This document shows positions 8,331 to 51,996 of a stretch of 64,000 nt of DNA, piece by piece. The stretch comes from an uncultured Acidimicrobiales bacterium (GTDB lineage: Bacteria > Actinomycetota > Acidimicrobiia > Acidimicrobiales > Aldehydirespiratoraceae). The position numbers and the translations under genes are program-made. The stretch covers positions 3,636 to 67,635 of the forward strand of contig CATOTC010000004.1 in assembly GCA_951812975.1 (NCBI GenBank), in the 5' to 3' direction. Each line of letters starts with the position of its first letter. Position 1 is the first letter of the stretch. The notes beneath the pieces are model-generated. The model searched no databases. It was not told where the DNA came from and saw only the letters and a program-made list of their open reading frames with translations.

Positions 8331-8381
8331 GGGCTCACCCTAAGCACGGCCTGTGACAGTCAGGCCGAATCTTCGCCAAGG

Positions 8382-12029: not shown

Positions 12030-12060
12030 TAAACGTATCCGTCACTCAACCTGTCATGAC

Positions 12061-12114: not shown

Positions 12115-12227
12115 CGCCCGGCACCTGCCTGATAGTCATGTGAAATGCACGAGAAGGGAACCAGGCGGTTGATTCTGAGGGTACTCGCAGCCACGCGGTG
12201 CATCACTAGAAATGGGGCGTAAGCAGC

Positions 12228-12848: not shown

Positions 12849-12875
12849 CCTATAGGTACCAATAGGAGGGATGCG

Positions 12876-32900: not shown

Positions 32901-33099
32901 TGACCTCAAGACGCGGATAGTCCTGCGTGGCGAGGCTCTCCAAGGTCTCGGAGAACCAGTCACCGGGGGCGTGGGCGACGACCACCGCAAGGACCGACGG
33001 GGTCGTGTCCCGCGCGCCCGACGTCAAGACCTCGGAGCCGGACTCGGTCCCGGTCGCCTGGTCACCACTCAGCAGAGATTGGTCCGTACTGTCTGCCAC
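29953..33099 (-). CDS. GT2 glycosyltransferase fused to a large polytopic membrane domain
   Basis: N-terminal GT2 (VVVAHAPGDWFSETLESLATQDYPRLEVMVVD, CHDD), followed by about 700 aa with many TM segments. Confidence 0.8.
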   Translation of the reverse strand: MADSTDQSLLSGDQATGTESGSEVLTSGARDTTPSVLAVVVAHAPGDWFSETLESLATQDYPRLEVMVVDAAGDPSMPARVEALLPEASVLDASDTEGFSAAANALLDTNVDPLFLMICHDDIAPEPDAVRLLVVESLRSNAGIVGPKLVDWDNPDRLQQVAYIVDRFAAAAEVVDPGEIDQEQYDAVVDVFAVPSACILIRTDLFRSLDGFDPEMPYHCEDVDLCFRAQLAGARVMAVPDARVRHRQALSTRKSTDEERLGARHQLRTVLVTSSYPSLCYLLPAALVFSFGESMVALFGRRFGRFRDIWGAWLWNVARLGEIHSRRKALRRLRRTRYADVRALQQGGSVRLNAAIRGRFGPDRAHVVGRELASAMRTGTARISAVVLALIGLFVLFGSRSLIAGGVPVIGDYLPFGGSGSEMIGEWWSGWRERDMGSSGAGASVVGLLGLFSILSGGAVGLVRTLWVLLPIVVGLVGAWRMLRPTGSRRAQLGSLFVYAVIPLPWAALATASIAGVYAYSLAPWLLAALLRAQSVWSTRSSDETWHRLVPIGGTIGAVVGVTALFDLSASLILAPMVAGLLLGAVLSFNLSGTLRMLVCVVVALPVVSVLALPFLVDQLVGGATWEPLAGGRDGSASAIPLSDIISFNIGPTEPGVFVWALGVLMVIPMLTGRSWRFELAVRGWSVAILSWGLTWVAALGWLPFGMPDDSVLLAAAAVGVALTCGVAIVAFEHDLPAAGFGWRQALLPLAVVAAVASSIPALALAESGRWGMPRGDYEDVLPFADPLRDGSYRVLWIGSPETILSEGRPLVADLAWVASIDGFPRLSDRLPAVEGGAAPLVSEAVLRALNGETIRLGRELGGLGVRYVVLLDRLAPAPFSDPDDAVSIPAGVRGAIASQLDLRRLEGINSAVEVYDNTEWTSVRAAASPGFDSGVEQIADLAAVPISGTAGVMSGRGDSLSGSIPDGTEVFLAQTADPSWTFEVDGSRAPQRHSVGYATAFVPQDGGTGELNYLTAPWRRWVLIVQLSAIVLLIGVVAIRPVIGHRR

Positions 33100-36128: not shown

Positions 36129-36826
36129 GCGCGCTGGAGATCTTTGCAGTGAACGGCATCGGAGAGGTTCGACCCGGCGACGACCTGGCCTCGTTGATAC
36201 TCGACGCAGATGCCGACCTGCGAGACCGCGACTGCCTGGTGATCACCCAGAAGGTCGTCTCCAAGGCTGAGAACCGGCTCGTCGAGGTGGACCCCACCGA
36301 TCCGCTGTCGCACAAGCCGTTGGTGGAGCGTGAATCGGTGCGGGTGCTGAGACGGCGGGGCGATCTGATAATCAGTGAGACAAGCCACGGGTTCGTGTGT
36401 GCCAACGCCGGGATTGACCTGTCGAACGTCGAGCGGGGCCAGGCTGCTCTGCTGCCGATCGACAGCGACCGCTCCGCACGCGGGATCCGCGACAGACTGA
36501 AGGCGGGGGCCGGCGTCGACGTGGGGGTGGTGGTGAGCGACACCTTCGGGCGCCCCTGGCGGAGGGGGGTGACCGATGTCGCCATCGGCTGTGCAGGGAT
36601 CGCGGCCATTGTCGATCTTCGCGGGTCAACCGACACTTTCGGCCGTGAACTGATGGTGACCGAAGTCGCCGCAGTAGACGAAATCGCTGCTGCGGCCGAT
36701 TTGGTGATGGGCAAGGCTGAAGGCACCCCCGTGGCCATCGTTCGAGGGCTCCGCGAGGAGTGGTTCAGACCCAGCAGCGTGGTCGCCGAGATCATCCGCT
36801 CCCCCGCCGAAGACCTGTTCCGCTAA
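36125..36826 (+). CDS. cofE: coenzyme F420-0:L-glutamate ligase, stand-alone CofE domain
   Basis: 233 aa with ITQKVVSKAE, HGFVCANAGID and SDTFGRPWR blocks. No C-terminal nitroreductase-like domain. Confidence 0.88.
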   Translation: MSALEIFAVNGIGEVRPGDDLASLILDADADLRDRDCLVITQKVVSKAENRLVEVDPTDPLSHKPLVERESVRVLRRRGDLIISETSHGFVCANAGIDLSNVERGQAALLPIDSDRSARGIRDRLKAGAGVDVGVVVSDTFGRPWRRGVTDVAIGCAGIAAIVDLRGSTDTFGRELMVTEVAAVDEIAAAADLVMGKAEGTPVAIVRGLREEWFRPSSVVAEIIRSPAEDLFR

Positions 36827-37101
36827 CTCACGCTCTTGTTCGCTGCGCTTGACTCCCGCTCTTGTTCGCTGCGCTTGACTCCCGCTCTTGTTCGCTGCGC
36901 TCACGGGCCGCTTTGGGCCGCGGACGGGCAGCTTTGGGCCGCGGACGGGCAGCTTTGGGCCGCGGCCTCCTTCGGTCGCGCCCGTGCGGGTCAATCCGCT
37001 CGGCCTCTGTTGTCTCCCGCTCTTGTTCGCTGCGCTCACGGACCCTTGGGCCGCTGCCTCGTTCGGTCGCGGCCGTGTGCGGGTCAATCCGCTCGGTCTC
37101 T
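36827..37101 (+). repeat. modular intergenic repeat element, two tandem copies with internal module expansions
   Basis: Module A ctc(a/c)cgctcttgttcgctgcgct at 36827, 36853, 36879, 37014. Module B is a 21-nt unit x3 at 36903-36965. Module C ends ccgctcgg(c/t)ctct at 36996-37008 and 37089-37101. Confidence 0.9.
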
Positions 37102-38113
37102 AGCGGCCGTAGCCGTCGGGGTTCTGGCACTGCCAGCGCCAGTGGTCCCGCATCATGTCGTCGATGTCTCGTGTCGCCCGCCAGCCGAGCAGCTCCGCAG
37201 CCAGGTCCGTGGCCGCCCAGGTTTTGGCGATGTCGCCGGCTCGACGCTCGCAGATCTCGTACGGAATCGCCGCACCTGTCGCCCGCCTGGCCGCCTCTAT
37301 CAATTCGAGCACGCTGGTGCCGGTGCCCGTGCCCACATTGACGGCGACGGCTCCCCGATGCCCCCCGACCAGCACGTCGAGGGCCGCGACATGGGCCTCC
37401 GCCAGATCCACGACATGTATGTAGTCGCGGACTCCAGACCCGTCGACGGTGTCGTAGTCGCCGCCGAACACCTGCAGCGTCTCACGCCTGCCGCAGGCCA
37501 CCTCCATCACCAGCGGCACGAGATTGTTGGGAATGTCGTTGGGGTCTTCGCCGAGGGTTCCAGAGGGGTGCGCTCCGACCGGATTGAAGTAGCGCAAAAT
37601 CATCGCGTCCATCGGCCGAACCGCGCAGACGTCGGTGATGATCTGCTCGCTCATCAGCTTCGTCCAACCGTAGGGACTCTCCGCTCCCACGGGTGCCGAC
37701 TCGCTGACCGGCAGGACTTCTGGCTGTCCGTACACGGTGCACGACGATGAGTGGACCAGGCTACCGACTCCATTGTCGAGCATCGCCTCCAGCAGCCCGA
37801 GCAGCGAATCCAAGTTGTTGCGGTAGTACGCGACGGGTTTCTCAACGGACTCCGCCACGGCCTTGTGGGCAGCGAAATGCACCACCTCGGTGATCGGATA
37901 CTGCGCAAAGACCCTGCGGACCGCTTCGCCGTCACACAGGTCGACTTCGACGAGGGCGACCTCCGCTGTGGTGAGCGCCCTTACCGCCTCCACCGCGCGG
38001 GGCGAAGAATTGACGAAGTTGTCGACGATGACGACGTCACGACCCGTCTCACCGAGGGCGACCGCTGTGTGAGAACCGATGTACCCGGCTCCACCGGTGA
38101 CCAGAACAGCCAC
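37100..38113 (-). CDS. galE: UDP-glucose 4-epimerase
   Basis: VTGGAGYIGSH and SPYGWTK (YxxxK); 337 aa. Confidence 0.9.
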   Translation of the reverse strand: MAVLVTGGAGYIGSHTAVALGETGRDVVIVDNFVNSSPRAVEAVRALTTAEVALVEVDLCDGEAVRRVFAQYPITEVVHFAAHKAVAESVEKPVAYYRNNLDSLLGLLEAMLDNGVGSLVHSSSCTVYGQPEVLPVSESAPVGAESPYGWTKLMSEQIITDVCAVRPMDAMILRYFNPVGAHPSGTLGEDPNDIPNNLVPLVMEVACGRRETLQVFGGDYDTVDGSGVRDYIHVVDLAEAHVAALDVLVGGHRGAVAVNVGTGTGTSVLELIEAARRATGAAIPYEICERRAGDIAKTWAATDLAAELLGWRATRDIDDMMRDHWRWQCQNPDGYGR

Positions 38114-38114
38114 G

Positions 38115-39119
38115 TCAGTCGCTCATCGGGATCTTCAGTCCGTCGACGAGCTGACCGGCACCGACGTTCTGGCCATCGCCGAGGATCGACATGCCGGTGA
38201 TCTTGGCGCCCTCCCCGACACGGGCCCGAGGACCCACGATCGAACCGTCGACGAGGGCATCGGCAGCAATCACCGCGCCACCCATGATGATGCTGTCGCG
38301 CACGACTGCGCCGCCGGCGACGGTCGCGGCCGCCATCACCACTGACCTCTCGACTTCGGCGTCGGCATCGACACTGGCCTCAGGCGATTCGGCGGGCAAC
38401 GCCGCGCCGCGAACGCCGTCGATCAGGTCCAACTGTGCATGCATGTAGGTGGCCGGGGTTCCGATATCGATCCAGTAGGCATCGGAATGCACGGCCCAGA
38501 GGCCGCGCTCGGCAACAATCTCCGGGAATACCTCCCGTTCGATGGAGACCCGGCGGCCGCTGGCGATCCGCTCAAGAATCTCGGGTTCAAGCACGTATAT
38601 TCCGGCGTTGATCCAGTCCGTTGGAGCTTCATCACGGCTCGGCTTCTCGATGAACCCCAACACCCGGCCTTCAGCGTCGGTCGGCACGACCCCGAAACGC
38701 GACGGGTCCTCCACGCGGGTCAGTGCAATCGTGGCCATCGCGCCGAGGGCGTGGTGACGGTCCCACAACGACCCGATGTCGAAATCGGTCAGGACATCGC
38801 CGTTCACGACGATGAACGGCTCGTCTAGGCCCGCCGCATCGGCGGCGAAACGGACCGCGCCGGCCGTGTCGAGCGGTTCCGGCTCAACGGCATAGCTGAG
38901 CGACACGCCGCCGCATTCGGCGTCAGGGTAGGCGGCACGAAAAAGATCCTCCTTGTAGCCCAAGGCGAGGACCACCTCACTGACCCCGGCCCGTTTCAGC
39001 GTGCTGACGACATATTCGATCATCGGGCGGTCCACGACCGGCAACATCTGTTTCGGAGTAGTCACCGTCAACGGTCGCAGCCTCGTTCCGAAGCCACCAA
39101 CCAGTACAACGGCCTTCAT
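38115..39119 (-). CDS. manC: mannose-1-phosphate guanylyltransferase (GDP-mannose pyrophosphorylase-type nucleotidyltransferase)
   Basis: GGFGTRLRPLT signature plus a C-terminal left-handed beta-helix-like region. The sugar specificity is inferred from context. Confidence 0.8.
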   Translation of the reverse strand: MKAVVLVGGFGTRLRPLTVTTPKQMLPVVDRPMIEYVVSTLKRAGVSEVVLALGYKEDLFRAAYPDAECGGVSLSYAVEPEPLDTAGAVRFAADAAGLDEPFIVVNGDVLTDFDIGSLWDRHHALGAMATIALTRVEDPSRFGVVPTDAEGRVLGFIEKPSRDEAPTDWINAGIYVLEPEILERIASGRRVSIEREVFPEIVAERGLWAVHSDAYWIDIGTPATYMHAQLDLIDGVRGAALPAESPEASVDADAEVERSVVMAAATVAGGAVVRDSIIMGGAVIAADALVDGSIVGPRARVGEGAKITGMSILGDGQNVGAGQLVDGLKIPMSD

Positions 39120-39128
39120 GACATTCCC

Positions 39129-39890
39129 CTAGCCGTCGCTCCCGTCAGATTCTTCAACGTCCGCGGGAGCATCGCCGCCGGTTTCGTCGCTGAGCGGATC
39201 CAGCGTGGTGGTCGTCAACGGAGCGGGGCCCTGCCATTCGATCTCGGCACCGACACCGATGAGCGAGCCGACAGCAGCTTGCGCGGGAGGCGGCGGATCA
39301 TCACCGACCGCCACCAGAGCGAAGCTGAAACCCTCGCCGTCTTCAAGCAGGCGAATGTCATCGAAGTCGTCTTCGTAGACCTCGATGAGCTCAGGGTCGG
39401 CGTTGAGCGTAAGGTGCCAGCGCGCCACCTTGATCACACCGGGCTCGCCGTCGCAACCGTCCTCAGCCAGGATCGGGGCGAACTCTCCGTTGTCCGCGAA
39501 GATTCCGTCAACTCCGATGGATGCGTCCATCGTGTCGAGGAAGACGCCGAGGCGCGCGTCCTCGCCCGTCGCTGAGCTGTTGTACGGGTGAATATGAATC
39601 AGGGAGTCCCCGTGGCTGTGGATGCCGTCAGGGTCGACCTGGCTTTGGAATAGCGGCATCTGTTGGCCACAGTTGTAGATCGTGTAGGCCGAGTGCCAAT
39701 GGTCCTCCGTCGTCGGAGACGTCAAGGGGTCACGAGAACCGCGGGCCAGTATCACCAGCACAACCCCGAGCACCACGACCAATGCCACCACGAGGGGAAA
39801 CCCGATATTCCGGCGTTCCGAAGCACCTCTCGACGAGGCTGCGGCTCTAGCCGCGCGTTGAACCTTCTTGGACGAACTTGCTTTTGCCAC
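39129..39890 (-). CDS. membrane-anchored hypothetical protein with a His-rich motif
   Basis: Basic N-terminus, one TM, then HWHSAYTIYNCG...GIHSHGDSLIHIHP and an acidic tail. Confidence 0.55.
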   Translation of the reverse strand: MAKASSSKKVQRAARAAASSRGASERRNIGFPLVVALVVVLGVVLVILARGSRDPLTSPTTEDHWHSAYTIYNCGQQMPLFQSQVDPDGIHSHGDSLIHIHPYNSSATGEDARLGVFLDTMDASIGVDGIFADNGEFAPILAEDGCDGEPGVIKVARWHLTLNADPELIEVYEDDFDDIRLLEDGEGFSFALVAVGDDPPPPAQAAVGSLIGVGAEIEWQGPAPLTTTTLDPLSDETGGDAPADVEESDGSDG

Positions 39891-39931
39891 GAGCCATTAC
39901 GCTAGCGCTCAAGCGGCGACGAACGGCGCGA

Positions 39932-41239
39932 TCAACGTCCGATTCGCCGGTCGGGTCGGCTCCACCGCCGACTCCTGGTAGCGCGGGGCCTTCTCAGCTC
40001 CTCGAAGAGCTCGCCATAGGCCGCCGCTACACCCGTCGGCGAAGCACACCGCGACACGAACTCCCTACCCGCAGATCCCATTGCCACCAGATCAGCATCG
40101 TCGACCAGTGCCAGCACCGCCGCGGTAAACAGCGACTGGTCCTCCGCGGCGACCACGAGGCCTGCACCCTGCGACGCCACGACATTGGCCACCTCAGTGC
40201 CGGAGTCGAGCGCCGCCAACACGGGCCGGCCGGCTGCGAGAATCGAATAGAGCTTCGAGGGAACCGACGATGCCGCGAGTCCGCGACGCAGCGCAATTAC
40301 ATGCACGTCAGCGGCGGCAAGCACCTCGGCGAGCCGTTCCGCCGGCTGGAAGTCGACGAAGACGACGTTGTCGAGTCCGTCGGCGAGCGACTCGAGTTCC
40401 TGGCGCCTTGAGCCCTCACCGTTGATCACGAACACGACGTCGTCACGGTCACTCAGCTCACGGGCGGCTTCGACCATCAGTTCGAGCGGCTGAGAGAACC
40501 CCAGATTGCCCGCATACATGACCACGCTCCGAGTGCCGAGCCCGAACTCGGACCGGTAGGAGTTGTCGCGGTCCTGCGGTCGAATCCGCTCGGTATCGAC
40601 AAAGTTCGGGATCACACGGACCCTGGCGGCAGCCGATCCCGGACCCACAGTGTCGACAAGCTTCGCCTCAACGTTGCTGCGGAGATCCTCGGACAGCACG
40701 GTCACAACCGCAGACCGGCGGTACACGAACCGCTCGAGCCCCTCGAGCAGTCTGATCACGCCCCGATTCGTGATCGCTCCGAGAGCCACCGCCACATCGG
40801 GGAAGACGTCCTGGACATTGAACACAAGAGGAGCCCGACGCAACCGGGAAGTGAACCAGGCGGCCAACCCGAGCGTGAGCGGCGGCGACATCGCCAAGAC
40901 CACATCGGGGCGCCGTTTGAACAGCGAACAGAGGCCGGCCAACGCGGTGAACCCACCGAAACCCGCCGCACGCGCGGCGAAGTTGCGCTTGTTCGTGGGG
41001 AACGGATAGACGCGGCTGATCGAACCCCAAACGGTCTTCTCGGAGCGGATGATCCGACCCTTCCAGGCTTCATCAACCGCATGAGAGGCGTACCACGGCA
41101 GCGAAGTGACCACGTCGACTGTGTGGCCCTGTGCCACCAGACCACGAACAATCTCGCTTATCACCAACCCGGTCGGCGCGACATCGGGCTCGAAATGGGG
41201 ACAGATGATCTGAATCCGCACCTGACCAGTCTCTCTCAT
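39932..41239 (-). CDS. GT4-family glycosyltransferase
   Basis: GT-B fold pattern with a C-terminal E(x7)E-like region. ATGA start/stop overlap with the upstream GT4 (41236-41239). Confidence 0.8.
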   Translation of the reverse strand: MRETGQVRIQIICPHFEPDVAPTGLVISEIVRGLVAQGHTVDVVTSLPWYASHAVDEAWKGRIIRSEKTVWGSISRVYPFPTNKRNFAARAAGFGGFTALAGLCSLFKRRPDVVLAMSPPLTLGLAAWFTSRLRRAPLVFNVQDVFPDVAVALGAITNRGVIRLLEGLERFVYRRSAVVTVLSEDLRSNVEAKLVDTVGPGSAAARVRVIPNFVDTERIRPQDRDNSYRSEFGLGTRSVVMYAGNLGFSQPLELMVEAARELSDRDDVVFVINGEGSRRQELESLADGLDNVVFVDFQPAERLAEVLAAADVHVIALRRGLAASSVPSKLYSILAAGRPVLAALDSGTEVANVVASQGAGLVVAAEDQSLFTAAVLALVDDADLVAMGSAGREFVSRCASPTGVAAAYGELFEELRRPRATRSRRWSRPDRRIGR

Positions 41240-42366
41240 TCGCCTCGACTGTGGGCCTCGCGCCAAGCCCCGATCAACCGTCGCGCAGAAACAGCCGGGG
41301 CGTAGGCTTCGGCCCGGACCCGGCCCGCAGCACTCAATCGATCGGCCAAAGACCGGTTTGCAACGATCTCATCGATTGCGTCAGCCCACCCGTCCGGGTC
41401 ATCGACGTCGAGCAGCAGTCCGGCACCGGCCACGACTTCAGGCATCGCGCTGTTGTCGCCGGCGATCACAGGAGTGCCTGCATGCATCGCCTCGAGCAGG
41501 GGCAGCCCGAACCCCTCATAGCGCGACGGAAAAGCCAGCACATCCGCCCGTCGGGTCAATGCCGACAACATCGATCCACTGACGCGGCCAAGGCGCAACA
41601 CCCGGGCCCGCAGGTGGCGCAGCTTCGACGCGACCAGGGCCTCGGCCCGGCCCTGACCACCGGTCAGCACCAGGGTCAGGTCATCTCCGCGATCAGCCAG
41701 GCGGTCGACCGCCTCGAGCAGAACCAGATGGTTCTTGTGGGGATGGGTAGCAGCCGGATACAGGACCACCGGTCCCGAGCCGAGCCGATCCGCCAGACCG
41801 TCTACAGCGAGCGATTCTGTATCCTCGGCGTCGCCCCGCTGTGGACTCCAGGTGGACGACACCACCCGAACCTTGTCCGGGTTGACACCGAGCCGTTCGA
41901 CAACCGACTGAGCGACCCAGGCAGAGGGAGTGCAGATCAGCGATGCAGCCGCCGCGGACCGTTGCACCGCCCAGGAGAGGTACTGCCGTTTCGCGCGGCT
42001 GAAGTTCGCAGGCATGTCCAGGGGTTGCAGGTCGTGGATCGTCACAACGGCACGCGGGTTTCGTAGCGCGGGCAGGCGCCCGCCGAAGTGGTGCACCACG
42101 TCCGCGTTTCGGGTTGCTCGGTGAACCTGCGTCGATTCCGCCAGAATCCGGTATCCACGGATACCCACAGGACCCGCGACAACCGAGAACGGCAGGGTCG
42201 CCATCCAAGGATAGCTCTGTGTCAGACGCTTCGAAGCGACGATCCTCAGTGAAATGTCCTCAGGTGCGGCGCTGAGGACCGAAGCGAGCAGGCGGGTGGT
42301 GTACTCCTCGCTCCCACCAACATCGCCAGGCACCAGCCAGGCGAGATTCACAGCAACCGAGATCAC
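41236..42366 (-). CDS. GT4-family glycosyltransferase
   Basis: FPSRYEGFGLPLLEAM motif. GTGA overlap with the upstream GT4 (42363-42366). Confidence 0.85.
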   Translation of the reverse strand: MISVAVNLAWLVPGDVGGSEEYTTRLLASVLSAAPEDISLRIVASKRLTQSYPWMATLPFSVVAGPVGIRGYRILAESTQVHRATRNADVVHHFGGRLPALRNPRAVVTIHDLQPLDMPANFSRAKRQYLSWAVQRSAAAASLICTPSAWVAQSVVERLGVNPDKVRVVSSTWSPQRGDAEDTESLAVDGLADRLGSGPVVLYPAATHPHKNHLVLLEAVDRLADRGDDLTLVLTGGQGRAEALVASKLRHLRARVLRLGRVSGSMLSALTRRADVLAFPSRYEGFGLPLLEAMHAGTPVIAGDNSAMPEVVAGAGLLLDVDDPDGWADAIDEIVANRSLADRLSAAGRVRAEAYAPAVSARRLIGAWREAHSRGE

Positions 42367-43460
42367 CGGCTCACCTCGTCGTAGACCGCGGCGATACCCT
42401 CGGCAGTGCGTGCCCAAGACATGGCCCCGGCCCTCTCAAAAGCCGCGGCCCCAAACTCCTCACGCAGCTTCACATCGCTCACGAGTGAATCAATGCCCGC
42501 GGCAATCGAGTCGACGTCAGTCGGGTCGACCAGCACACCGGCCGAGCCCGCGACCTCACCGGTGGCGGTACCGGCGCTAGTGACAACCGCGGTACCCTGA
42601 GCCATCGCCTCGAGCACCGGCATGCCGAAGCCCTCCATGAGACTCGGGTAGACGAACACATCGGCCAGGTCGTAGAGGACACTGAGCTCGTCGCTCGGAA
42701 CCTGGCCGAGGTGACGCGCCTCGACTGTTGAGTTGGCAATCAACTCATTCAGATCCAGGCCCCAGCCACCAGGACCCACCAGCAGCAACGGCAGGCGCGT
42801 CCCGCTTCGGGCCACAGCTGAGATCAAAGACTCGAGGTTCTTCCGGGGTTCCGCAGTGCCGACCCACAGCAGGAACCTCGAAGGCAGACGGTAACGGAGC
42901 CGCACATCGTCACGCGCCTGTTCGCTGACCGACCTCGCGGACACACCCCACGGCACTACACGCAGCCGGTCGGCGTCCAGGCCGTGAGAAACGCAATCCT
43001 CCAACGTATGCCGCGACGGCACCACGACGAGCCCGGCGTGGCGCTTCGCCAGCGCCCAGGCGCGGCTCATGAAAGCCACTCCCCGCTTGGAGAAATATTG
43101 GGGATAGCGAAGAAACGCAAGGTCGTGCACAGTCACGACCAAGGCGGCATCACCAGCCGGCGGAACCACCCCTCCGGTTGCGTGGACAACGTCGAGTCGT
43201 CCTGTTGAGGCCTGGATGCTCGGCCTGCGAACCCGATGCCAGGCCTCGTACAAAACAACACGGGGCAGACCCATGTGACAAACCTCGACGGGCGGTACTG
43301 CCAAGACGTTGGGCGGGCCTCTGTGCGCGGCAGCTACTCCGACAACCTCCCAGTCGGTGCGCTGCGCCAAAGCCTCCAGACTGCGGACTGCGGAGGCAGC
43401 CGTGCCTCCTGGAACACGATGCCAGCATTGTTCGACGACGGCACCGACACGACCCCCCAC
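42363..43460 (-). CDS. GT4-family glycosyltransferase
   Basis: YPSLMEGFGMPVLEAM motif. The start lies 3 nt after the histidine kinase stop. Confidence 0.85.
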   Translation of the reverse strand: MGGRVGAVVEQCWHRVPGGTAASAVRSLEALAQRTDWEVVGVAAAHRGPPNVLAVPPVEVCHMGLPRVVLYEAWHRVRRPSIQASTGRLDVVHATGGVVPPAGDAALVVTVHDLAFLRYPQYFSKRGVAFMSRAWALAKRHAGLVVVPSRHTLEDCVSHGLDADRLRVVPWGVSARSVSEQARDDVRLRYRLPSRFLLWVGTAEPRKNLESLISAVARSGTRLPLLLVGPGGWGLDLNELIANSTVEARHLGQVPSDELSVLYDLADVFVYPSLMEGFGMPVLEAMAQGTAVVTSAGTATGEVAGSAGVLVDPTDVDSIAAGIDSLVSDVKLREEFGAAAFERAGAMSWARTAEGIAAVYDEVSR

Positions 43461-43463
43461 CGT

Positions 43464-45677
43464 CTAGCTGGCCTCAGCCGAGTCGGTTTGTTCGGATGGA
43501 CCGCCGGCAGGCCCCTCCGACAGTTCTTCAGGCATCCCCGTAGGCAGGGTGATGAGCATTTCGGTGTACTCGCCGATCTTGGAGTCAACGTTGATGGTCC
43601 CGCCATGCTGGCGAACTATGTCGCTCGATATCGCAAGACCGAGCCCGGTGCCGCGATCCGTTGGTTTCGTTGTGAAGAACGGGTTGAAGATCTTGTCGGC
43701 CACATCGGGGGGAATGCCGTTGCCGTTGTCCTTGATCCGAATCTCAACCTGCTCGTCTGTGCGTCTGGTGCTGAGCCAGAGCATCGGCGAATACGACGCT
43801 CCATAGGGTTCGTCCTCCTCAGTCGCACCCCAGATCTCGCGACGTTTCTCGTCGGTGGCGTCACAGGCATTCCCGACCATGTTGAGGAACACTCGACTCA
43901 GGTCTCGGGGAATGACCCGCATCTCACCCACATCCGGGTCGAGGTCGTGTTGCAGATCAAGCTGGAACTCCGAATCGGTGGCGCGAGCTGAGTGGTAGGC
44001 CAGACGGGCGTGCTCCTCCAGCAGGTTGTTGATGTCGGCCATCTGCCACTCACCCGTGTCGCGGCCCATCGAGAGCATGTCGGTGACGATCCGGTTGGCA
44101 CGGTCCCCATGTGAACGAATCCGTTCGAGATTGCCGCTCAGATCACCCTTTATCTCAGCGATCCACGACCTCTGCTCCTCTGAGATGCCGTCGCCGATCT
44201 CTTCAAGAATCTCGTTCAGTTCTTCGATCAGCTCCTCTGACGCCTCCGAGAAGTTCTTCACAAAGTTCAGGGGATTCTTGATCTCGTGTGCGACACCTGC
44301 GGTGAGCTCACCGAGCGCCGCCAACTTCTCACGCATGACGATCTGGTCCTGCGCGCGCTGCAAGTCCTCGAGCACCTCCTCGAGCTGAGCGTTCTTCTCC
44401 TGCAGTTCCTCGGCCATCTTCTCGACCAGGTTGAGACGTTGAACCTCAAGGGCGTGCCGCCGGAACACCTCCAGGGCCGCGGCCATGTCCGCCACTTCGT
44501 CGCGTCCCCCCACATCGGCGGTGAGCTCCAAGTTGCCTCCGGCCATACGCCGCATCCAGTCCGAAAGGCGGGCCAGACGACGCAGCAGCATCCGTCCGAT
44601 CTGATAGATGATCAGCAGACCGCCACCGATGCTTATCCCGCTGATTATCAACAGCAGCAGCCGGCCGGTCAGTATCGCATCCTCCGATGCCGCGGTCGCT
44701 TCCTGAACACTGTCCTCCGCGGCGCTGACCAGCGAATTCACATTCTCGAGAAGATCTGCCGCGACCTCTCGGCTGCGCTGCAGCAGTTCCTCCTGGGACT
44801 GCAGCAGTCGAAGCTCAGACTCGCGCAGGTCGAATCCGCCCTGTTCACCCCCCAAGATGAACAATCGTTCGAACAGCAGGTCGAAATCATCGGCTAAGAG
44901 CGGATCGCTCTCCCTCAGCTGGGAGATGCTCCGCTGGATCCGTCCGGCCGCCGCCTCGAACCGCTCGCGCAGCGGCTCAATGGTCGACGCGTCCGACAAT
45001 CCGAAGGCGCTCGCCAGCAACTGGGTCGAGATGTTGGCGTTGGCCTGCAGCTCGGCCAGGAAGCGGTACTTTCGGATCTCTTCCTCCGAAAGGTGCTCAG
45101 CGCGCGAACTGGGCGGCTCCTCGACGTCTTGATAACCCGTCAACAAGAAGAAGAACTGATCGTCGAGAGCCGGGATGAGAGCCGCGTCGATCTCAGCGCG
45201 CAGTCCATCGAGCTGTGCCTGGAGGTTCGACTTCAGGTCATCAAGCTGGAACAGCTCGACCCGATCAAACTTGATCTCCTCGATGTTCGAGCGGAGGGTG
45301 ACCCCGAGACCTCGGACCAGCTGATTCTGGCCAGGCCTCGTGGCCGTAGACTCCAGAACCACCAGCCCCGAATCGAACGCCGCGTACGTCTCGTTGATGT
45401 CCTCAACGACGGCGTCAAGGTCCTCCGGCGTGGCCGCGACGATGCGCGGCGCAGCCGCAACCAACTCGCCGCTGTACTGGGCGACGCTGAACGCCACCGC
45501 CATAGCCGGGACACTGCCCTCGTTGACCCGCTCCTGAACGTCACCCACCCGATTAATGGAGAACCAGCCGACAAGACTGGCTGCGACGGTCAGCACCACC
45601 GCCGCGCCGATCGCCGAATACAGGCGGGTCGAGATGCGGAAACGGCTCTCCGCGATTCGTCGGAACCAGTCTCTCAC
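43464..45677 (-). CDS. sensor histidine kinase (two TMs, about 300-aa extracytoplasmic helical domain, HAMP, HisKA, HATPase_c)
   Basis: H-box AGVAHEIKNPLNF, N-box NMVGNACDA, G-boxes DNGNGIP and GTGLGL. Confidence 0.9.
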   Translation of the reverse strand: MRDWFRRIAESRFRISTRLYSAIGAAVVLTVAASLVGWFSINRVGDVQERVNEGSVPAMAVAFSVAQYSGELVAAAPRIVAATPEDLDAVVEDINETYAAFDSGLVVLESTATRPGQNQLVRGLGVTLRSNIEEIKFDRVELFQLDDLKSNLQAQLDGLRAEIDAALIPALDDQFFFLLTGYQDVEEPPSSRAEHLSEEEIRKYRFLAELQANANISTQLLASAFGLSDASTIEPLRERFEAAAGRIQRSISQLRESDPLLADDFDLLFERLFILGGEQGGFDLRESELRLLQSQEELLQRSREVAADLLENVNSLVSAAEDSVQEATAASEDAILTGRLLLLIISGISIGGGLLIIYQIGRMLLRRLARLSDWMRRMAGGNLELTADVGGRDEVADMAAALEVFRRHALEVQRLNLVEKMAEELQEKNAQLEEVLEDLQRAQDQIVMREKLAALGELTAGVAHEIKNPLNFVKNFSEASEELIEELNEILEEIGDGISEEQRSWIAEIKGDLSGNLERIRSHGDRANRIVTDMLSMGRDTGEWQMADINNLLEEHARLAYHSARATDSEFQLDLQHDLDPDVGEMRVIPRDLSRVFLNMVGNACDATDEKRREIWGATEEDEPYGASYSPMLWLSTRRTDEQVEIRIKDNGNGIPPDVADKIFNPFFTTKPTDRGTGLGLAISSDIVRQHGGTINVDSKIGEYTEMLITLPTGMPEELSEGPAGGPSEQTDSAEAS

Positions 45678-46978
45678 CGCGGCATCTCCGTGAGTGCGTC
45701 GAGCGGGCGATACTCGCCGTTCTCGTCGATGATCGACCAGAACACCTGGTCCGAACCCTGGTTGTCCTGATCTCCATAACTCAGCATGAACCCGTCGATG
45801 TCTATGGGTTCTGAAGAAGCGAAGCGTTCCGAGAAGCAGCCCCTGTCAACGGTCGCCCCGCAGCTCTGCAGACCAGCGATGGCCAGACGGCCCGCAAGAT
45901 AGCCCTCGAGGGAGACGAACCCCGGCACGCCGTTCGGGTTGTAGGCCTCCAGGGCGTCGAGGTAGCTCGCCACGACTGGAACATCCGCGTCGGTCGGGAA
46001 GGGCACAACCTGGGTGGTCAGGACTCCGGCACCGTCGGGACCCAACTCCTGTGCCAACGCATTGCTGCCGACGAACGAGATGGTGACGAACACCGCGTCC
46101 ATTCCCATCTCGCGTGCCCAGCGGATAAACCATGCGACCGGTTGGTAGGCCCCGATCACGATCACCCCTTCGGGGTCGCCCTGCTTGAGATCCAGCAGTC
46201 CCGTCTTGACCGCGGTCGTGTTGCGCGGGTACAGGCCCACAGACACCGCCTCCATCCCACGGCGCTCGAGCGCGGCGCGCGCGCCGTTGTATCCCGCCCG
46301 TCCGAAGGAGTCGTCCTGGTACATGACGCCTATCCGGTCGATACCCAACTCTGAGACGAACCGTTCCACCATTTCTTCGGTCTCCTGGTTGTAGGAGGCC
46401 CGCAGGTTGATCACATTGGTTTGTTGGGGGTCCCGCAGGAACGCGGCACCGGTGAAGGGAGCGATGTAGGGAATGTCGGCAGCCGTCGCTACGGGCACGG
46501 CAGACCGCGAGGTGGGTGTACCGACCGCACCGATCAAGGCGAACACATCACCCGAATTGATCAACTGCTGGGTGTTGTCGATGGCAGCCTCGGGTTCGTA
46601 GGCATCGTCGTAGGAGATGAGTTCAAGACGTCTCCCATGGACTCCACCGGTCCGGTTAACCTCCTCGAAAGCCGCCGCGATGCCCAGGCGCATCCCGTCA
46701 CCGAGATCTCGGGCAGGACCGGTGAACGCCGCTGACTGACCGAAGACGACAAGATCGTCGTGGACCCCGGGTGTTGCGTCCGATCCGAGTCCGCCCGGGT
46801 CGTCAGGAGACGTCTCCTCACCGAGGTCCGGCGTCGAACCGGTCGATTCGGTTGTAGAAGTGGTTCCGTTACCGGAGCCGGGGACATCAGACGACGAGGA
46901 GCAAGCGGAAATGCACAGCGCCAAGACCAGGAACAGAACGGCGAGCTTGCGTGTCGAAGAGCAGCGATTCTTGCGCAT
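45674..46978 (-). CDS. lipoprotein, type-I periplasmic binding protein (LivJ/AmiC-like)
   Basis: Lipobox LCISAC and a Ser/Thr/Gly-rich linker. The body resembles branched-chain amino acid/amide binding proteins. Its stop overlaps the kinase start (GTGA). Confidence 0.8.
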   Translation of the reverse strand: MRKNRCSSTRKLAVLFLVLALCISACSSSSDVPGSGNGTTSTTESTGSTPDLGEETSPDDPGGLGSDATPGVHDDLVVFGQSAAFTGPARDLGDGMRLGIAAAFEEVNRTGGVHGRRLELISYDDAYEPEAAIDNTQQLINSGDVFALIGAVGTPTSRSAVPVATAADIPYIAPFTGAAFLRDPQQTNVINLRASYNQETEEMVERFVSELGIDRIGVMYQDDSFGRAGYNGARAALERRGMEAVSVGLYPRNTTAVKTGLLDLKQGDPEGVIVIGAYQPVAWFIRWAREMGMDAVFVTISFVGSNALAQELGPDGAGVLTTQVVPFPTDADVPVVASYLDALEAYNPNGVPGFVSLEGYLAGRLAIAGLQSCGATVDRGCFSERFASSEPIDIDGFMLSYGDQDNQGSDQVFWSIIDENGEYRPLDALTEMPR

Positions 46979-46996
46979 CTCCGTCTCGATATCGGT

Positions 46997-47401
46997 CTAG
47001 CTCTTCGGAGTCGTCATGGTCAGGTGGTTCCTGCCTGGTTCCCGCCGATAGTTGACATCGTCCATCATTGTGCGCACCAGGTGCACCCCCAGACCCCCTA
47101 CATGGCGGTCTTCAATAGATCCCGTGGTCTCCGGCTCGGGGGCATCGGTCAGAGGGTCGAACGCCACTCCATTGTCCGAGATCGCGATCGAGATGAGATC
47201 GTCGCTCGATGTGACCGTCACATCGATTTCTGCATGCCCCTGTTGGCCCCCGTGAGTCATGACGTTGATCACCAACTCCTCGAGCACGAGGTTGACCTTG
47301 AAGACGACTCCATCAGGCCAGCCCTGCTGTTCAGCGAATTCCTCCACCGCGGCCGCCATCCGCTCAAGTTCTGCACGATCGCTGCCCAACTCGAGAGACA
47401 A
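46997..47401 (-). CDS. anti-sigma-factor-type Ser/Thr kinase (RsbW/SpoIIAB-like HATPase_c)
   Basis: 134 aa. N-box EELVINVMTHG, G1 DNGVAFDP, G2 GGLGVHLV. Confidence 0.8.
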   Translation of the reverse strand: MSLELGSDRAELERMAAAVEEFAEQQGWPDGVVFKVNLVLEELVINVMTHGGQQGHAEIDVTVTSSDDLISIAISDNGVAFDPLTDAPEPETTGSIEDRHVGGLGVHLVRTMMDDVNYRREPGRNHLTMTTPKS

Positions 47402-47408
47402 GACGGCG

Positions 47409-48584
47409 CTAATGATCTCGTCCTCCTGCTCGCAGCGTCATACAGGTGATGTCATCGGACTGCGCCGCATCGCCGGCGAACTCCATCACCGCGTCGAAGA
47501 TGAAATCGTTCACGGCGCGTGCCTCGGACGGGCGGGACTCCGAGAAGAGACTCTCGAGGCGCTCCATACCGAATTCCTCTTCGTTCTCATTCATGGCTTC
47601 GGTCACGCCGTCGGTGTACAGGATCACATTGTCGCCGGGTGAGAGCGTGATGCTCGACTGTGCATACTCCATGCCTGGCACCAGACCCAAGGCAACACCC
47701 CCGGTGAGGGGCAACCGGGTGGCGTTGCCGTCACTGTCGATCACGACCGGAGTGTTGTGGCCGCCGTTGGCGAACGTCAGCTTGCGTGTCGACGGGTCGT
47801 ACACGGCGTATATGAGAGTCACGAACATTGCTGTCTCGTTGTCCTCGCACAACAGGTCGTTGACCTCCTTCAACACCTCCCCGGGCGTGCCGAGGCCTAT
47901 CGCGGCCCCTTTCAGCAGAGTGCGGCTCGACATCATGAACAACGCAGCCGGAACACCCTTGTCGGACACGTCGGCGACTGCCAGGCCGAGCACCCCTCCT
48001 TCGAGGCGCATGACATCGAAGAAGTCCCCGCCCACCGAACGCGCCGGTTTCATGCTGGCGAATACCTCGTAGGAGGGATCCTGGGGAAAGCTCTTGGGCA
48101 GGATCGACTGCTGCATCTGCGAGGCGACGCTGAGCTCGTTCTGCAATGCCACGAGCCGATCACGCGCGCCGAGGGCGTCTCGCCACTCCAGGAGCTGTTG
48201 CAATGTTCGATCTATGGTGAGTTTCAGGTCGTCGAAATCCACCGGCTTGGTGACGAAGTCGAACGCCCCCCGATTCATCGCAGTGCGGATGTTCTTCATG
48301 TCGCCATAGGCGGAGATGATCACAGACCGGATATTGGGATTGACCTTGGGGATCTGGTCGAGCAACGCCAACCCGTCCATCTTGGGCATGTTGATGTCCG
48401 ACAGGACGATCACGATCTCGTCGTCCTCCCGCAGGCGCTCGAGTGCCTCAACACCGTTCTGAGCAAACACGAACTGATACTGGCCGGAACGCACGTAGCG
48501 ACGCATCCGCTGTTGGACGAGTGGCTGCAGGTCCGGCTCATCGTCTACTACCAGAATCTTATAGGGGGGTTGTATGCCGCTCAT
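47409..48584 (-). CDS. response regulator receiver fused to a PP2C/SpoIIE phosphatase (RsbY/RsbU-like)
   Basis: REC (ILVVDDEPD, LSDINMPKMDG) plus PP2C blocks (GGDFFD, LAVADVSDKG, LYTDGVTEA). ATG 48584 is preferred over TTG 48599. Confidence 0.85.
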   Translation of the reverse strand: MSGIQPPYKILVVDDEPDLQPLVQQRMRRYVRSGQYQFVFAQNGVEALERLREDDEIVIVLSDINMPKMDGLALLDQIPKVNPNIRSVIISAYGDMKNIRTAMNRGAFDFVTKPVDFDDLKLTIDRTLQQLLEWRDALGARDRLVALQNELSVASQMQQSILPKSFPQDPSYEVFASMKPARSVGGDFFDVMRLEGGVLGLAVADVSDKGVPAALFMMSSRTLLKGAAIGLGTPGEVLKEVNDLLCEDNETAMFVTLIYAVYDPSTRKLTFANGGHNTPVVIDSDGNATRLPLTGGVALGLVPGMEYAQSSITLSPGDNVILYTDGVTEAMNENEEEFGMERLESLFSESRPSEARAVNDFIFDAVMEFAGDAAQSDDITCMTLRAGGRDH

Positions 48585-48668
48585 GGCGTTCTGCTCCAAC
48601 TATTGAGATCAACCTCGGGCACGCAACGTTTCCCGGAGTATTTCGGCGGCCGTCAAGTCAAGCGGAAC

Positions 48669-49007
48669 TCACAGCCCGAGGCCGGACACAGCTTCGCCCG
48701 TGTCTGCGTACACAGGCACGATCTTGTCGAAACCGCTGATCTCAAACACTTCTCGGATCGAGTCCGACAGTGAACAGACAGCCAGCTTGGCGTTCTTTTG
48801 TTGAAGTGTCTTGGCAACAAGGAGAACCACGCGGAGACCAGCACTACTGATGTACGACAATCCCTCGAAGTCCAAGACCATCGACTCGCCATCGGCGCCG
48901 ATACTGGCCTCCAGGCCTTCATGGAAGTCACGAGCGTTGGCGCCGTCAACCCGGCCGACCGCCTTGACGATCACCGCTCCACCCGTATTGTCACTTGTTA
49001 ATTCCAT
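48669..49007 (-). CDS. STAS-domain anti-sigma-factor antagonist (RsbV/SpoIIAA-like)
   Basis: 112 aa with a conserved phosphorylatable serine context LSYISSAGLRV. Confidence 0.85.
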   Translation of the reverse strand: MELTSDNTGGAVIVKAVGRVDGANARDFHEGLEASIGADGESMVLDFEGLSYISSAGLRVVLLVAKTLQQKNAKLAVCSLSDSIREVFEISGFDKIVPVYADTGEAVSGLGL

Positions 49008-49057
49008 TAGGTTTCATTCCCTCATATCGCCGGACTGACGATCGGCTGGATTGCGTC

Positions 49058-49088
49058 TGGCGGCGCTCTCGTTGCCGAGTCGCCGCCA
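49058..49088 (-). other. 8-bp GC stem-loop (tggcggcg N15 cgccgcca) between amt and the STAS gene
   Basis: Read directly. No U-tract, so it could be a weak terminator or attenuator. Confidence 0.3.
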
Positions 49089-49146
49089 ATCGTACACGGG
49101 TCTGTTGACCTATGTCATGTTCGAACCAAGAAAGCCTGCCGGGCCA

Positions 49147-50520
49147 TCAGTCCTCCTCGGGCATGAGTACGAACTCGGGGTAGCTCTCGATTCCCAATTC
49201 CCCTGCATCTTGGCCCAAGCGTTCGACCTGAGCCGAGATGCGGATGCCCAACAGTGAATCCATCGCTCGCCAAAGCACGTAGGAGACGGCGAAAACAAAC
49301 ACGCCGATCGAGACGACCCCGAGCAACTGAATATGGAAACGGCCTCCCGCCGCGATCGTCACTGCCAGCGTTCCCCAGATGCCCGACACGAGGTGGGCAG
49401 GAATAGCACCGACAACATCGTCGATCTTCAACCTCTCCAGCAGTTTCGTAGCCAGCGTGCAGACCAGGCCTCCTACCGCTCCGATGATGATCGCCCACCG
49501 GTGGTCGGTGATTGCCGGACCCGCGGTGATCGCTACAAGCCCGGCGATGGCACCGTTCATCCCTGCGAACAGGTCCATTCGGCCCAACAGGGGCCGTGAG
49601 ACCGCCAGCGCCGCCAGCACGCCCGCTGAAGCCGACAGGTTGGTGTTGACCAGCACGTTGCTCATCGATACTGCGTCGGCTGCGGTTCCCAACGCCAACT
49701 GCGACCCGCCGTTGAAAGCAAACCACCCGAGCCAGAGGATGAACACGCCCAACGTGAAGATCAGGACGTTCGAAGGCGGCGTCGGCTTGACAGTGCCGTC
49801 TGCGCGGAACTTGCCGAGGCGCGGTCCCACGACGATCACGCCGGCGAGTGCAGCCCAACCGCCGGTCCCATGGACGATCGTCGAACCCGCAAAGTCGATA
49901 AACCCCTCTTGGTGCAACCAACCTTTCCCCCAAGTCCATGCACCGACCACCGGGTAGATGAACGCGGTGAGCACGAGCGTGAACAAGAAGAACGGCCAGA
50001 TCTTGATCCTCTCTGCAATGGCACCGGACACGATCGAAGCCGCCGTCGCCACGAAGACCATCTGGAAGAACCAGTCCGACATGACCGCGTATCCATTGTC
50101 TACGACAGCAGCCAGAGCGGAATCGTCGCCGTCTAGCAGCGACACCTCCTCTGGAGAAGTTGAGTAGAAGAACTCGAACGTGCCGATGAAGTCGTCGACT
50201 TCCACATACATCAGGTTGTAGCCCACCAGGAAGTAGGCGAGCCCCGCTATCGAGTAGATGCCGATGTTCTTGAGACAGATCATCGATGCGTTCTTGGTTC
50301 GCACCGCGCCCGACTCCAGCATCGTGAAACCGGCGGCCATCCACATGATCAGTGCGCCCCAGACGAGAAACGCGAAAGTGTTGAAGATGAACTGGGTCTC
50401 ATTGTCGACAGCGGAGTCGGCCGCCGAGGCAAGACCCGGCATGACTGCCACTGAAGTGAGCGTCAATGCGGCCAGGCCAACGATCTTGGGTGCCCTCCGT
50501 GCCCGAAAGAGTTTCGACAC
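49147..50520 (-). CDS. amt: ammonium transporter
   Basis: Amt/MEP signatures (FAGSTIVHGTGGWAAL, 11 TMs). Start set at GTG 50520, preceded by GGGAGG. The ORF track extends to 50574. Confidence 0.92.
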   Translation of the reverse strand: MSKLFRARRAPKIVGLAALTLTSVAVMPGLASAADSAVDNETQFIFNTFAFLVWGALIMWMAAGFTMLESGAVRTKNASMICLKNIGIYSIAGLAYFLVGYNLMYVEVDDFIGTFEFFYSTSPEEVSLLDGDDSALAAVVDNGYAVMSDWFFQMVFVATAASIVSGAIAERIKIWPFFLFTLVLTAFIYPVVGAWTWGKGWLHQEGFIDFAGSTIVHGTGGWAALAGVIVVGPRLGKFRADGTVKPTPPSNVLIFTLGVFILWLGWFAFNGGSQLALGTAADAVSMSNVLVNTNLSASAGVLAALAVSRPLLGRMDLFAGMNGAIAGLVAITAGPAITDHRWAIIIGAVGGLVCTLATKLLERLKIDDVVGAIPAHLVSGIWGTLAVTIAAGGRFHIQLLGVVSIGVFVFAVSYVLWRAMDSLLGIRISAQVERLGQDAGELGIESYPEFVLMPEED

Positions 50521-50615
50521 ATTTCCTCCCGTGGTCGCGTTGCACAACCCCGTCAAGACTCTAGCTTCATGCACCGCCGCAGGTGGGAGAAGCGCGAACG
50601 GCTGCGGCTCCGCTG

Positions 50616-50842
50616 AGAGGCCGAGCGGACAGGCGAGCGAGCCCGGCCCATACGGCGCGAGGCCGCGGCCCGAGCGGCCCGTGAGCGCAAGCGAACAAGA
50701 GCGGGGATGAGAGCCCGAGCGGCCCGTGAGCGCAAGCGAACAAGAGCGGGGATGAGAGCCCGAGCGGCCCGTGAGCGCAAGCGAACAAGAGCGGGGATGA
50801 GAGCCCGAGCGGCCCGTGAGCGCAAGCGAACAAGAGCGGGAG
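50616..50842 (-). repeat. second locus of the modular repeat element (inverted relative to 36827-37101), with a 45-nt unit x3.9
   Basis: The unit cccgagcggcccgtgagcgcaagcgaacaagagcggggatgagag starts at 50669, 50714, 50759 and 50804. Its reverse complement shares cccgctcttgttcgct / gcgctcacgggccgct, gggccgcggcctc and ccgctcggcctct with locus 1. Confidence 0.9.
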
Positions 50843-50912
50843 TGGTACCGCTGCCACCCGACAGGCCCTCGCCTGTTCGGCGGGCACTCCGGGAAACGCT
50901 ACGATCACACCG

Positions 50913-51893: not shown

Positions 51894-51924
51894 GGCGCCC
51901 GCTCGGGATTCAGGACCACCCGGC

Positions 51925-51996
51925 GATCTCAGACTGCCCTCCGACCTCAGACTGCCCGGCGTTCTAAGACCGCCCGACGATCTCAGACTGGAAATA
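51925..51996. repeat. four 18-nt tandem units spanning the stop codon of the UDP-xylose synthase gene
   Basis: Minus strand reads QSEIVG / RS*NAG / QSEVGG / QSEIAG. The TAG differs from GAG in the sister units by one base. Confidence 0.85.

Follow-up and report, generated by a model that had tools for sequence, protein, structure and literature searches.

A predicted partner-switching cassette without a linked sigma factor, with a substrate-binding protein and a TorS-like kinase as its candidate input, in an uncultured Acidimicrobiales bacterium

Introduction

In the sigma B pathway of Bacillus cereus (RsbK-RsbY-RsbV-RsbW), a kinase-driven phosphatase with a receiver (REC) domain, here termed REC-PP2C, dephosphorylates a STAS protein, with a kinase of the RsbW type acting in opposition; RsbK itself is a hybrid kinase that faces the cytoplasm and has its own receiver domain. 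Here, a locus of related build is described in a stretch of 64,000 nt from an uncultured Acidimicrobiales bacterium (Aldehydirespiratoraceae; GenBank assembly GCA_951812975.1, contig CATOTC010000004.1, positions 3,636 to 67,635 of the forward strand), hereafter called the window. Five genes of this stretch, hereafter the cassette, encode a STAS protein, a REC-PP2C phosphatase, an RsbW-like kinase, a substrate-binding protein (SBP) and a membrane histidine kinase. On balance, the reading favored is that the SBP and the kinase, whose outside domain resembles that of TorS, sense an extracellular nitrogen compound and feed a partner switch that lacks a sigma factor, and that the cassette and an ammonium transporter (Amt) gene form a separate, inserted unit. 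As in B. cereus, REC-PP2C and a dedicated kinase share the locus. Unlike in B. cereus, the kinase is non-hybrid, has no receiver domain of its own and is accompanied by an SBP, no sigB gene is linked, and nitrogen genes are found as neighbors.

The HptB-HsbR-HsbA system of Pseudomonas aeruginosa likewise occupies a locus without a sigma gene, where the STAS protein HsbA is under the control of a REC-PP2C-kinase protein; HsbA acts on non-sigma partners (PMC5085249, PMC6482189). Its input consists of an Hpt protein and several hybrid kinases, whereas an adjacent SBP-kinase pair is present here, and its outputs FlgM and HsbD have no counterpart at the window locus. In Vibrio fischeri, the STAS protein SypA is encoded in a polysaccharide locus and switched by the receiver-controlled kinase/phosphatase SypE; the target of SypA is not a sigma factor (PMC8256260, PMC12826045). 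SypE, however, is one protein with the order RsbW-REC-PP2C, and the linkage to the syp genes is intrinsic, in contrast to the clade-specific insertion proposed below. In the HenR/All4160/Alr3423 system of Anabaena, a REC-PP2C protein and a serine kinase set STAS phosphorylation without a sigma factor, and a glycosyltransferase is regulated through the STAS domain fused to it (preprint 10.64898/2026.04.08.717354). In the window, by contrast, the STAS protein stands alone, and the three GT4 glycosyltransferases encoded next to the cassette (GT4a, GT4b and GT4c) carry no STAS domain, i.e., they are not fusions of the All4160/XssP type.

With regard to the input, TorT-TorS and LuxP-LuxQ are the nearest parallels, since there too an orphan binding protein is encoded beside a kinase with a long helical outside domain on which docking is expected. 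TorT belongs to Peripla_BP_1 and binds trimethylamine N-oxide, whereas the SBP described here belongs to Peripla_BP_6; TorS, a hybrid kinase that includes an HPt domain, passes its signal to TorR, a regulator of the OmpR type, whereas the kinase described here is non-hybrid and would signal to REC-PP2C. The mechanism of SBP-dependent sensor kinases has been reviewed, and the table of that review contains no characterized pair of a Peripla_BP_6 protein and a kinase (PMC8050422). With regard to the neighbors, AmtB-GlnK offers a parallel in that a small regulatory protein is encoded beside an ammonium transporter, with a modification state that would follow nitrogen status. The small protein here is a STAS protein and not PII, no PII gene is adjacent, and a STAS-Amt interaction is purely hypothetical. 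In full-text literature searches, no account was found in which a partner switch is tied to an ammonium transporter. The cassette differs from RsbK-RsbY, HptB-HsbR-HsbA, SypE-SypA and HenR/All4160 by the Peripla_BP_6 SBP and non-hybrid TorS-like kinase at its input and by nitrogen genes as its conserved partners.

Results

Genes and Domains of the Cassette

ORF listing, third-position GC and Pfam/NCBIfam searches delimited a run of 12 co-directional open reading frames (ORFs) on the minus strand (37100-50574). Its first six genes are, in order of transcription:

49147-50574, minus strand: ammonium transporter Amt (PF00909, E-value 1e-94; TIGR03644), first gene of the six-gene block read as inserted
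48669-49007, minus strand: stand-alone STAS protein of 112 aa (PF01740, E-value 7.5e-20; TIGR00377), the predicted phospho-switch
47409-48599, minus strand: REC-PP2C/SpoIIE response-regulator phosphatase of 396 aa (PF00072, E-value 1e-23; PF07228, E-value 2e-52)
46997-47401, minus strand: RsbW/SpoIIAB-type serine kinase of 134 aa (HATPase_c_2; PF13581, E-value 4e-27)
45674-46978, minus strand: lipoprotein SBP, Peripla_BP_6 (PF13458, E-value 3e-56), lipobox ISAC
43464-45677, minus strand: membrane histidine kinase, HAMP-HisKA-HATPase (Pfam), H-box AHEIKNPLN

The spacers measure 69 nt between the STAS and REC-PP2C genes, 7 nt between those of REC-PP2C and the RsbW-like kinase and 18 nt between the latter and the SBP gene; the SBP and kinase genes overlap by GTGA (45674-45677). 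The coordinates, domain calls and overlaps of the original prediction, including a gap of 3 nt between the kinase and GT4a genes, were all reproduced in the sequence. The amt gene, which lies directly upstream of the STAS gene on the same strand and heads the run, had been overlooked.

All parts of a partner switch were identified. The STAS protein contains the motif SYISSAGL, in which S55 aligns with Ser56 of RsbV and is the predicted phosphorylation site. REC-PP2C comprises a full PP2C domain, and both the context of the receiver aspartate and the metal-binding motifs of PP2C can be read in its sequence; its nearest solved structure is RssB of P. aeruginosa (3eq2), and 55-69% identity is reached in other phyla. 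The N, G1 and G2 boxes can be made out in the RsbW-like kinase, a GHKL kinase of RsbW/SpoIIAB type. The catalytic motifs are intact. The only receiver domain of the cassette sits on the phosphatase, so that the activity of the histidine kinase should set the activity of the phosphatase. In the close relative L081 (loci are cited by number), REC-PP2C and the RsbW-like kinase form one in-frame protein of 534 aa (7083-8687) with a distinct linker, AAGQEQQKDKAANTA. Thus, the two activities appear to be tied to one substrate. The domain order of this fusion is that of Pseudomonas HsbR, a single REC-PP2C-HATPase polypeptide encoded next to the STAS gene; in the window itself, the same parts are encoded by two genes.

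Conservation of the Cassette across Phyla

One genome per species was scanned with the kinase alignment, and the window proteins were then used as tblastn queries; 27 cross-phylum loci in which the kinase is matched over its full length were obtained. In 27/27 of them, the kinase gene is directly preceded by the SBP gene. All five cassette genes were present in 23 of the 26 informative loci, and REC-PP2C and kinase genes co-occurred in 25 of these 26. The hosts belong to at least seven phyla (Actinomycetota, Chloroflexota, Gemmatimonadota, Acidobacteriota, Pseudomonadota, Latescibacterota and Bdellovibrionota) and, according to record titles and taxonomy, include Dehalococcoidia, SAR202, Caldilineaceae, Alpha- and Gammaproteobacteria, Bacteriovoracaceae and other Acidimicrobiia. 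Across the loci, identity to the window proteins amounts to 46-69% for REC-PP2C, 49-69% for the SBP and 36-59% for the kinase. The five-gene cassette is a conserved, portable unit, and since these identities are high for such taxonomic distances, it has probably spread horizontally. The six-gene order from amt to the kinase gene recurs in the alphaproteobacterial locus L011.

A metagenome scan with the kinase alignment returned almost only matches to the kinase core and one further full cassette, L123. When plasmids were searched by tblastn with the kinase, no full-length match and no cultured plasmid-borne example was obtained. The named homologues of the kinase stem from metagenome-assembled genomes (MAGs) of Acidimicrobiaceae. 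L004, L008, L010, L019, L023, L034 and others are likewise MAGs, presumably of marine sponge symbionts as far as their isolate or Candidatus names suggest, and the cassette may be enriched in this habitat.

The signal chain from SBP via kinase and REC-PP2C to STAS and the RsbW-like kinase had been proposed from the sequence of the window. The conservation of the five genes and the L081 fusion support the functional linkage of its members well.

The Sensor Pair

The SBP belongs to the LivJ/urea/amide family, which binds amino acids, urea and amides, and its top match among solved structures is 4kv7 (E-value 1e-68). No ABC transporter genes are adjacent to its gene. The kinase consists of a first transmembrane helix, a helical outside domain of about 295 aa, a second transmembrane helix and the HAMP, HisKA and HATPase domains; Pfam detected neither a receiver nor an HPt domain. 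Its N-terminal 400 aa alone match positions 2-391 of the TorS model TIGR02956 (E-value 1.6e-16), and the full TorS equivalog is not reached (142 bits versus a cut-off of 676). A sequence search of the outside domain against solved structures, TorS sensor structures included, gave no match, so that the likeness is one to the NCBIfam profile alone. The SBP gene thus adjoins that of a kinase with a TorS-like helical outside domain. Based on the absence of transporter genes and on this outside domain, the pair most likely works like TorT-TorS, with the SBP docking on the sensor domain.

Nitrogen-Related Neighbor Genes

The Amt protein of the window scored 517.4 bits with TIGR03644, the model for the marine subtype (curated cut-off 514). 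Within 10 kb of the cassette, amt genes were found in 8/27 loci, seven of the eight being TIGR03644 proteins with 508-520 bits. Within the same distance, the set of circularly permuted ATP-grasp, Alpha-E and transglutaminase genes was present in 8/27 loci and glnE, which encodes glutamine synthetase adenylyltransferase, in 3/27; at least one of these three was found in 14/27. The chance that a gene with one or two copies lies within 20 kb of a given point of a 3-4 Mb genome is roughly 1%. The presence of amt in 8/27 loci is far above chance, although horizontal co-transfer keeps the loci from being fully independent.

The gene arrangements differ from locus to locus. The order Amt-STAS is shared by the clade of the window and L011, and kinase-Amt is found in L009 and L022. 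L004 has kinase-SBP2-ATPgrasp-Amt-AlphaE-transglutaminase, L012 has STAS-ATPgrasp-Amt-AlphaE, and in L014 and L016 the transglutaminase gene overlaps the STAS gene. In L027, RsbW-STAS-x-x-Amt-ATPgrasp-AlphaE-transglutaminase is divergent from REC-PP2C-SBP-kinase. In L025, GlnE heads an operon, GlnE-RsbW-STAS followed by Amt, which is also divergent from REC-PP2C-SBP-kinase. This variety suggests that the linkage was selected repeatedly and not inherited as one block. Where the cassette abuts nitrogen genes, it usually does so with the STAS gene.

The marine-subtype amt gene is located inside the permuted ATP-grasp operon, between the ATP-grasp and Alpha-E genes, in L004 (13849-18630), L012 (12302-16698) and L027 (407-7505); in L012 and L027, the STAS gene heads the ATP-grasp/Alpha-E/transglutaminase operon. 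GlnE adjoins the cassette in L025 (4410-7457), L020 (3329-6052) and L023 (3155-5707). The STAS gene lies downstream of the kinase gene on the opposite strand in L088 (1044-3401) and in L020 and L023 (at about 12.7-13.9 kb); its neighbors are a GPP34-family gene and a PII-like, apparently frameshifted ORF in L088 and an N-formylglutamate amidohydrolase gene in L020/L023.

Further neighbors of the cassette belong to organic-nitrogen catabolism (DAO, GCV_T, FGase, amidase and TauD) or encode transporters, namely a Na/H exchanger with CBS domains, a xanthine/uracil-type permease and a SulP-family permease. The exchanger gene lies between those of STAS and REC-PP2C in L004 (5434-7104) and near the cassette in L082 (15776-17479), and the xanthine/uracil-family permease gene of L022 (5224-6975) lies between two half-cassettes. 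When E. coli GlnB was used as a tblastn query, no PII gene was found in the window or beside the cassette-linked amt genes, the PII-like ORF of L088 being the sole match. In marine metagenomes, urea-metabolism domains have been correlated with ATP-grasp/Alpha-E/transglutaminase domains, an observation related only loosely to the present one (PMC3597751).

Sigma Factors as Possible Targets

Domain scans of about 55 ORFs across the window revealed neither a sigma-70 family protein nor a helix-turn-helix or other classical DNA-binding regulator, and a search of the window for the sigma region-2 motif was also negative; the locus is sigma-less, as had been stated at the outset. A canonical switch could nevertheless have an unlinked target, i.e., the RsbW-like kinase could sequester a SigB/SigF-like or primary sigma factor encoded elsewhere, which unphosphorylated STAS would free. 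Unlinked Rsb-type modules are common in actinobacteria, and in Chlamydia the primary sigma factor is reportedly a target of partner switching. The STAS protein belongs to the anti-sigma-antagonist superfamily TIGR00377, the RsbW-like kinase matches the RsbW and SpoIIAB profiles, if weakly and below the RsbW equivalog cut-offs (44 bits versus 145, NCBIfam), and a sigma-70-like gene is located about 3 kb away in L015. Set against this, no sigma-type target is linked to the cassette in the window or in 26/27 loci, and the cassette appears to cross phyla without a sigma gene, so that the target would have to be universal or co-transferred. In addition, the RsbW-like kinase is the least conserved cassette member, with 37-52% identity across phyla and 56-72% within the clade, and several characterized STAS systems use non-sigma targets (PMC8256260, PMC5085249). 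An unlinked sigma factor is therefore considered a rather unlikely output.

The Adjacent Glycosyltransferase Operon

The six remaining genes of the run follow the kinase gene:

42363-43460, minus strand: GT4a (Pfam, NCBIfam)
41236-42366, minus strand: GT4b (Pfam, NCBIfam)
39932-41239, minus strand: GT4c, WcaI-like (Pfam, NCBIfam)
39129-39890, minus strand: hypothetical membrane-anchored protein (ORF), part of the recipient operon
38115-39119, minus strand: NTP-transferase (Pfam)
37100-38113, minus strand: GalE-like epimerase (Pfam)

The stop codon TAG of the kinase gene is followed after 3 nt by the start codon GTG of GT4a at 43460, and the GT4a/GT4b and GT4b/GT4c junctions are overlaps of GTGA (42363-42366) and ATGA (41236-41239), respectively. 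From this coupling, the original prediction had derived envelope glycan synthesis or a glycosyltransferase as the output, the partner switch acting either on a GT4 protein as partner of RsbW or STAS or on the GT4 operon as transcriptional payload. The continuous co-directional run of 12 genes and the lack of a predicted terminator between the cassette and the GT4 genes are in keeping with this proposal, as are two known partner switches that act on polysaccharide synthesis, namely SypE/SypA (PMC8256260) and HenR/All4160 (10.64898/2026.04.08.717354). The junction is also tight in five genomes of the clade. However, tight junctions are generic in this genome: of the other gene pairs on the same strand in the window, about half are spaced by at most 25 nt and three overlap by 4 nt, and the junctions alone thus carry little weight.

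The adjacency of kinase and GT4 genes in relatives had been named as a check, and it was not conserved beyond one clade. In the close relatives L081, L084, L085 and L086 (kinase 74-87% and GT4a 61-92% identical), the whole synteny is kept, i.e., LCP, UDP-glucose dehydrogenase (UGDH), UDP-xylose synthase (UXS) and fcl on one side, Amt-cassette-GT4a-GT4b-GT4c-hyp-NTP-transferase-GalE in the middle and CofE-CofD on the other. In L082/L083, also Acidimicrobiia (kinase 67% identical), the cassette is located between P450 and DAO/malate-synthase genes and neither GT4 nor Amt is present. GT4 was found beside the kinase in 0/27 cross-phylum loci. Pfam families were counted in 174 ORFs located no more than 4.5 kb from the cassette and ranked for each side; neither glycosyltransferase nor sigma-70 families were among the 25 commonest neighbor families. 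Conversely, the more distant Acidimicrobiales L087, L168, L169 and L170 (GT4a 54-58% identical) have the same envelope synteny with neither Amt nor cassette. There, GT4a begins 38-78 nt past the upstream gene, which is fcl in L087, L169 and L170 and an RCC1-repeat gene in L168. The remainder of the operon, hyp-NTP-transferase-GalE, is syntenic in all nine Acidimicrobiales relatives examined. The GT4a/GT4b overlap also occurs in relatives without the kinase, and so predates the cassette. GT4a, GT4b and GT4c consist of GT4/GT1 domains only, with no STAS or other domain gained relative to cassette-less relatives.

Since the cassette exists elsewhere without GT4 genes and the GT4 operon exists in four relatives without cassette and Amt, the block comprising Amt and cassette (43464-50574, 7.1 kb) is read from the gene orders as an insertion between fcl and GT4a, ahead of an older envelope-glycan operon. 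Losing the module four times in the relatives instead would be less parsimonious. Third-position GC of the cassette equals that of its flanks, and composition neither dates nor proves the insertion. By this comparison, the GT4 genes are neighbors by insertion and not the conserved target of the cassette, and the GT4 enzymes or their operon are an improbable output.

Co-transcription of the GT4 genes with the cassette is nonetheless plausible in this clade, given the 3-nt gap and the lack of a predicted terminator. The spacer between the kinase gene and GT4a measures about 0-12 nt in all five cassette-bearing members of the clade, and transcription of the GT4 operon probably starts, for this reason, at promoters that lie inside the cassette or upstream of it. 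In L081, GT4a was called as a truncated gene of 235 aa about 390 nt past the kinase gene. A promoter and terminator scan of 36.5-51 kb, which also covered the junction of cassette and GT4 genes, returned counts at chance level and is evidence neither for nor against an uncoupling of the GT4 genes. One putative element was found by consensus scan in the spacer between the Amt and STAS genes:

49089-49118, minus strand: promoter-like site ATGACA-18 nt-TACGAT

In alignments, L081 and L085 share this element, and L084 retains it in part. The spacers between fcl and Amt were too divergent to show a regulator site. An Rfam scan of the whole window gave no match, so that explanations by a leader or riboswitch do not apply.

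The Wider Window

From about 20 kb to 64 kb, the window is one large envelope-glycan region. It encodes GT2 giants, GDP-mannose dehydratase, GDP-fucose synthase (fcl), UDP-glucose dehydrogenase and UDP-xylose synthase and, in addition, an LCP ligase, PMT_2-type transferases, phosphomannomutase and phosphomannose isomerase.

The window contains eight copies of a 15-nt core, GCGAACAAGAGCGGG, which are confined to 36826-37044 and 50623-50885. Four minus-strand copies lie just past the stop codon of the GalE gene, and four plus-strand copies, which form a perfect 45-nt tandem of 3.8 copies, lie between Amt and fcl. The two arrays are inverted and bracket exactly the run of 12 genes; in relatives, the repeat is missing and the corresponding spacers are short. 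An interpretation of the arrays as the ends of a mobile or invertible element was rejected, since gene order and orientation of the flanks are the same in repeat-less relatives. The upstream array has no unusual RNA fold (z = 0.38).

Other repeats were found at 21485-21711 (in-frame tandem repeats with periods of 15/57 nt inside the gene of a 1307-aa GT2 protein), 51919-51990 (four copies of 18 nt between fcl and the UDP-xylose synthase gene) and 62843-62974 (about three in-frame copies of 45 nt near the 5' end of the GT4 gene at 62804). The GC content is lowest at 11292-14091 (0.58 versus about 0.63-0.65), where the ORFs have no Pfam match except for a weak matrixin-like one at 12228-12848. 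A tRNA-Ala (GGC) called by ARAGORN at 30807-30886 (minus strand) lies inside a 1048-aa GT2-domain ORF (29953-33099) and is probably a false positive; Rfam is silent there.

Discussion

The proposed pathway can be outlined as follows. First, the lipoprotein SBP would bind an extracellular nitrogen-containing small molecule and dock on the kinase at its helical, TorS-like outside domain, in the way that TorT docks on TorS. Second, the kinase would set the phosphorylation of the receiver domain and thereby the activity of PP2C. Third, PP2C and the RsbW-like kinase would together set the phosphorylation of Ser55 of the STAS protein. The output would be control of ammonium uptake and nitrogen assimilation, to which the recurrence of Amt, the ATP-grasp set and GlnE points. 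A non-sigma, nitrogen-related target (Amt, GlnE or the ATP-grasp system) is tentatively put at close to an even chance, with what the sigma and GT4 outputs leave over falling to something else. More speculatively, and rather doubtfully, the STAS protein would be a post-translational regulator of the marine-subtype Amt, perhaps also of the ATP-grasp/Alpha-E/transglutaminase and GlnE functions. It would then have a role like that of PII/GlnK, in a nitrogen-control pathway shared horizontally among marine, often sponge-associated, bacteria of many phyla.

Several points weigh against this pathway and against the separateness of the inserted unit. No nitrogen gene lies within 10 kb in 13/27 loci; the nitrogen link is one of gene neighborhood only, in about half of the loci, and transfer of larger blocks could inflate the neighbor counts, the loci not being fully independent. 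The ligand, the phosphotransfer steps and the target are predictions, and 64 kb is the visible part of the genome, which leaves room for an unlinked sigma factor. Formally, the four relatives may have lost the module instead of this clade having acquired it. The short kinase-GT4a spacer is kept throughout the clade at 61-92% identity of GT4a; co-expression with the GT4 operon may thus have been stable for long, perhaps with a meaning acquired in this lineage.

If the nitrogen reading is true, partner switching would reach nutrient transport and assimilation, and the cassette would provide a candidate regulator for a marine-type Amt that has no adjacent PII gene in these loci. Peripla_BP_6 would join the short list of SBPs that signal through sensor kinases. 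For annotation, the locus illustrates that stop/start overlaps between a regulator and downstream enzymes can come from insertion into an operon, and that such overlaps need comparative support before they are read as functional coupling.

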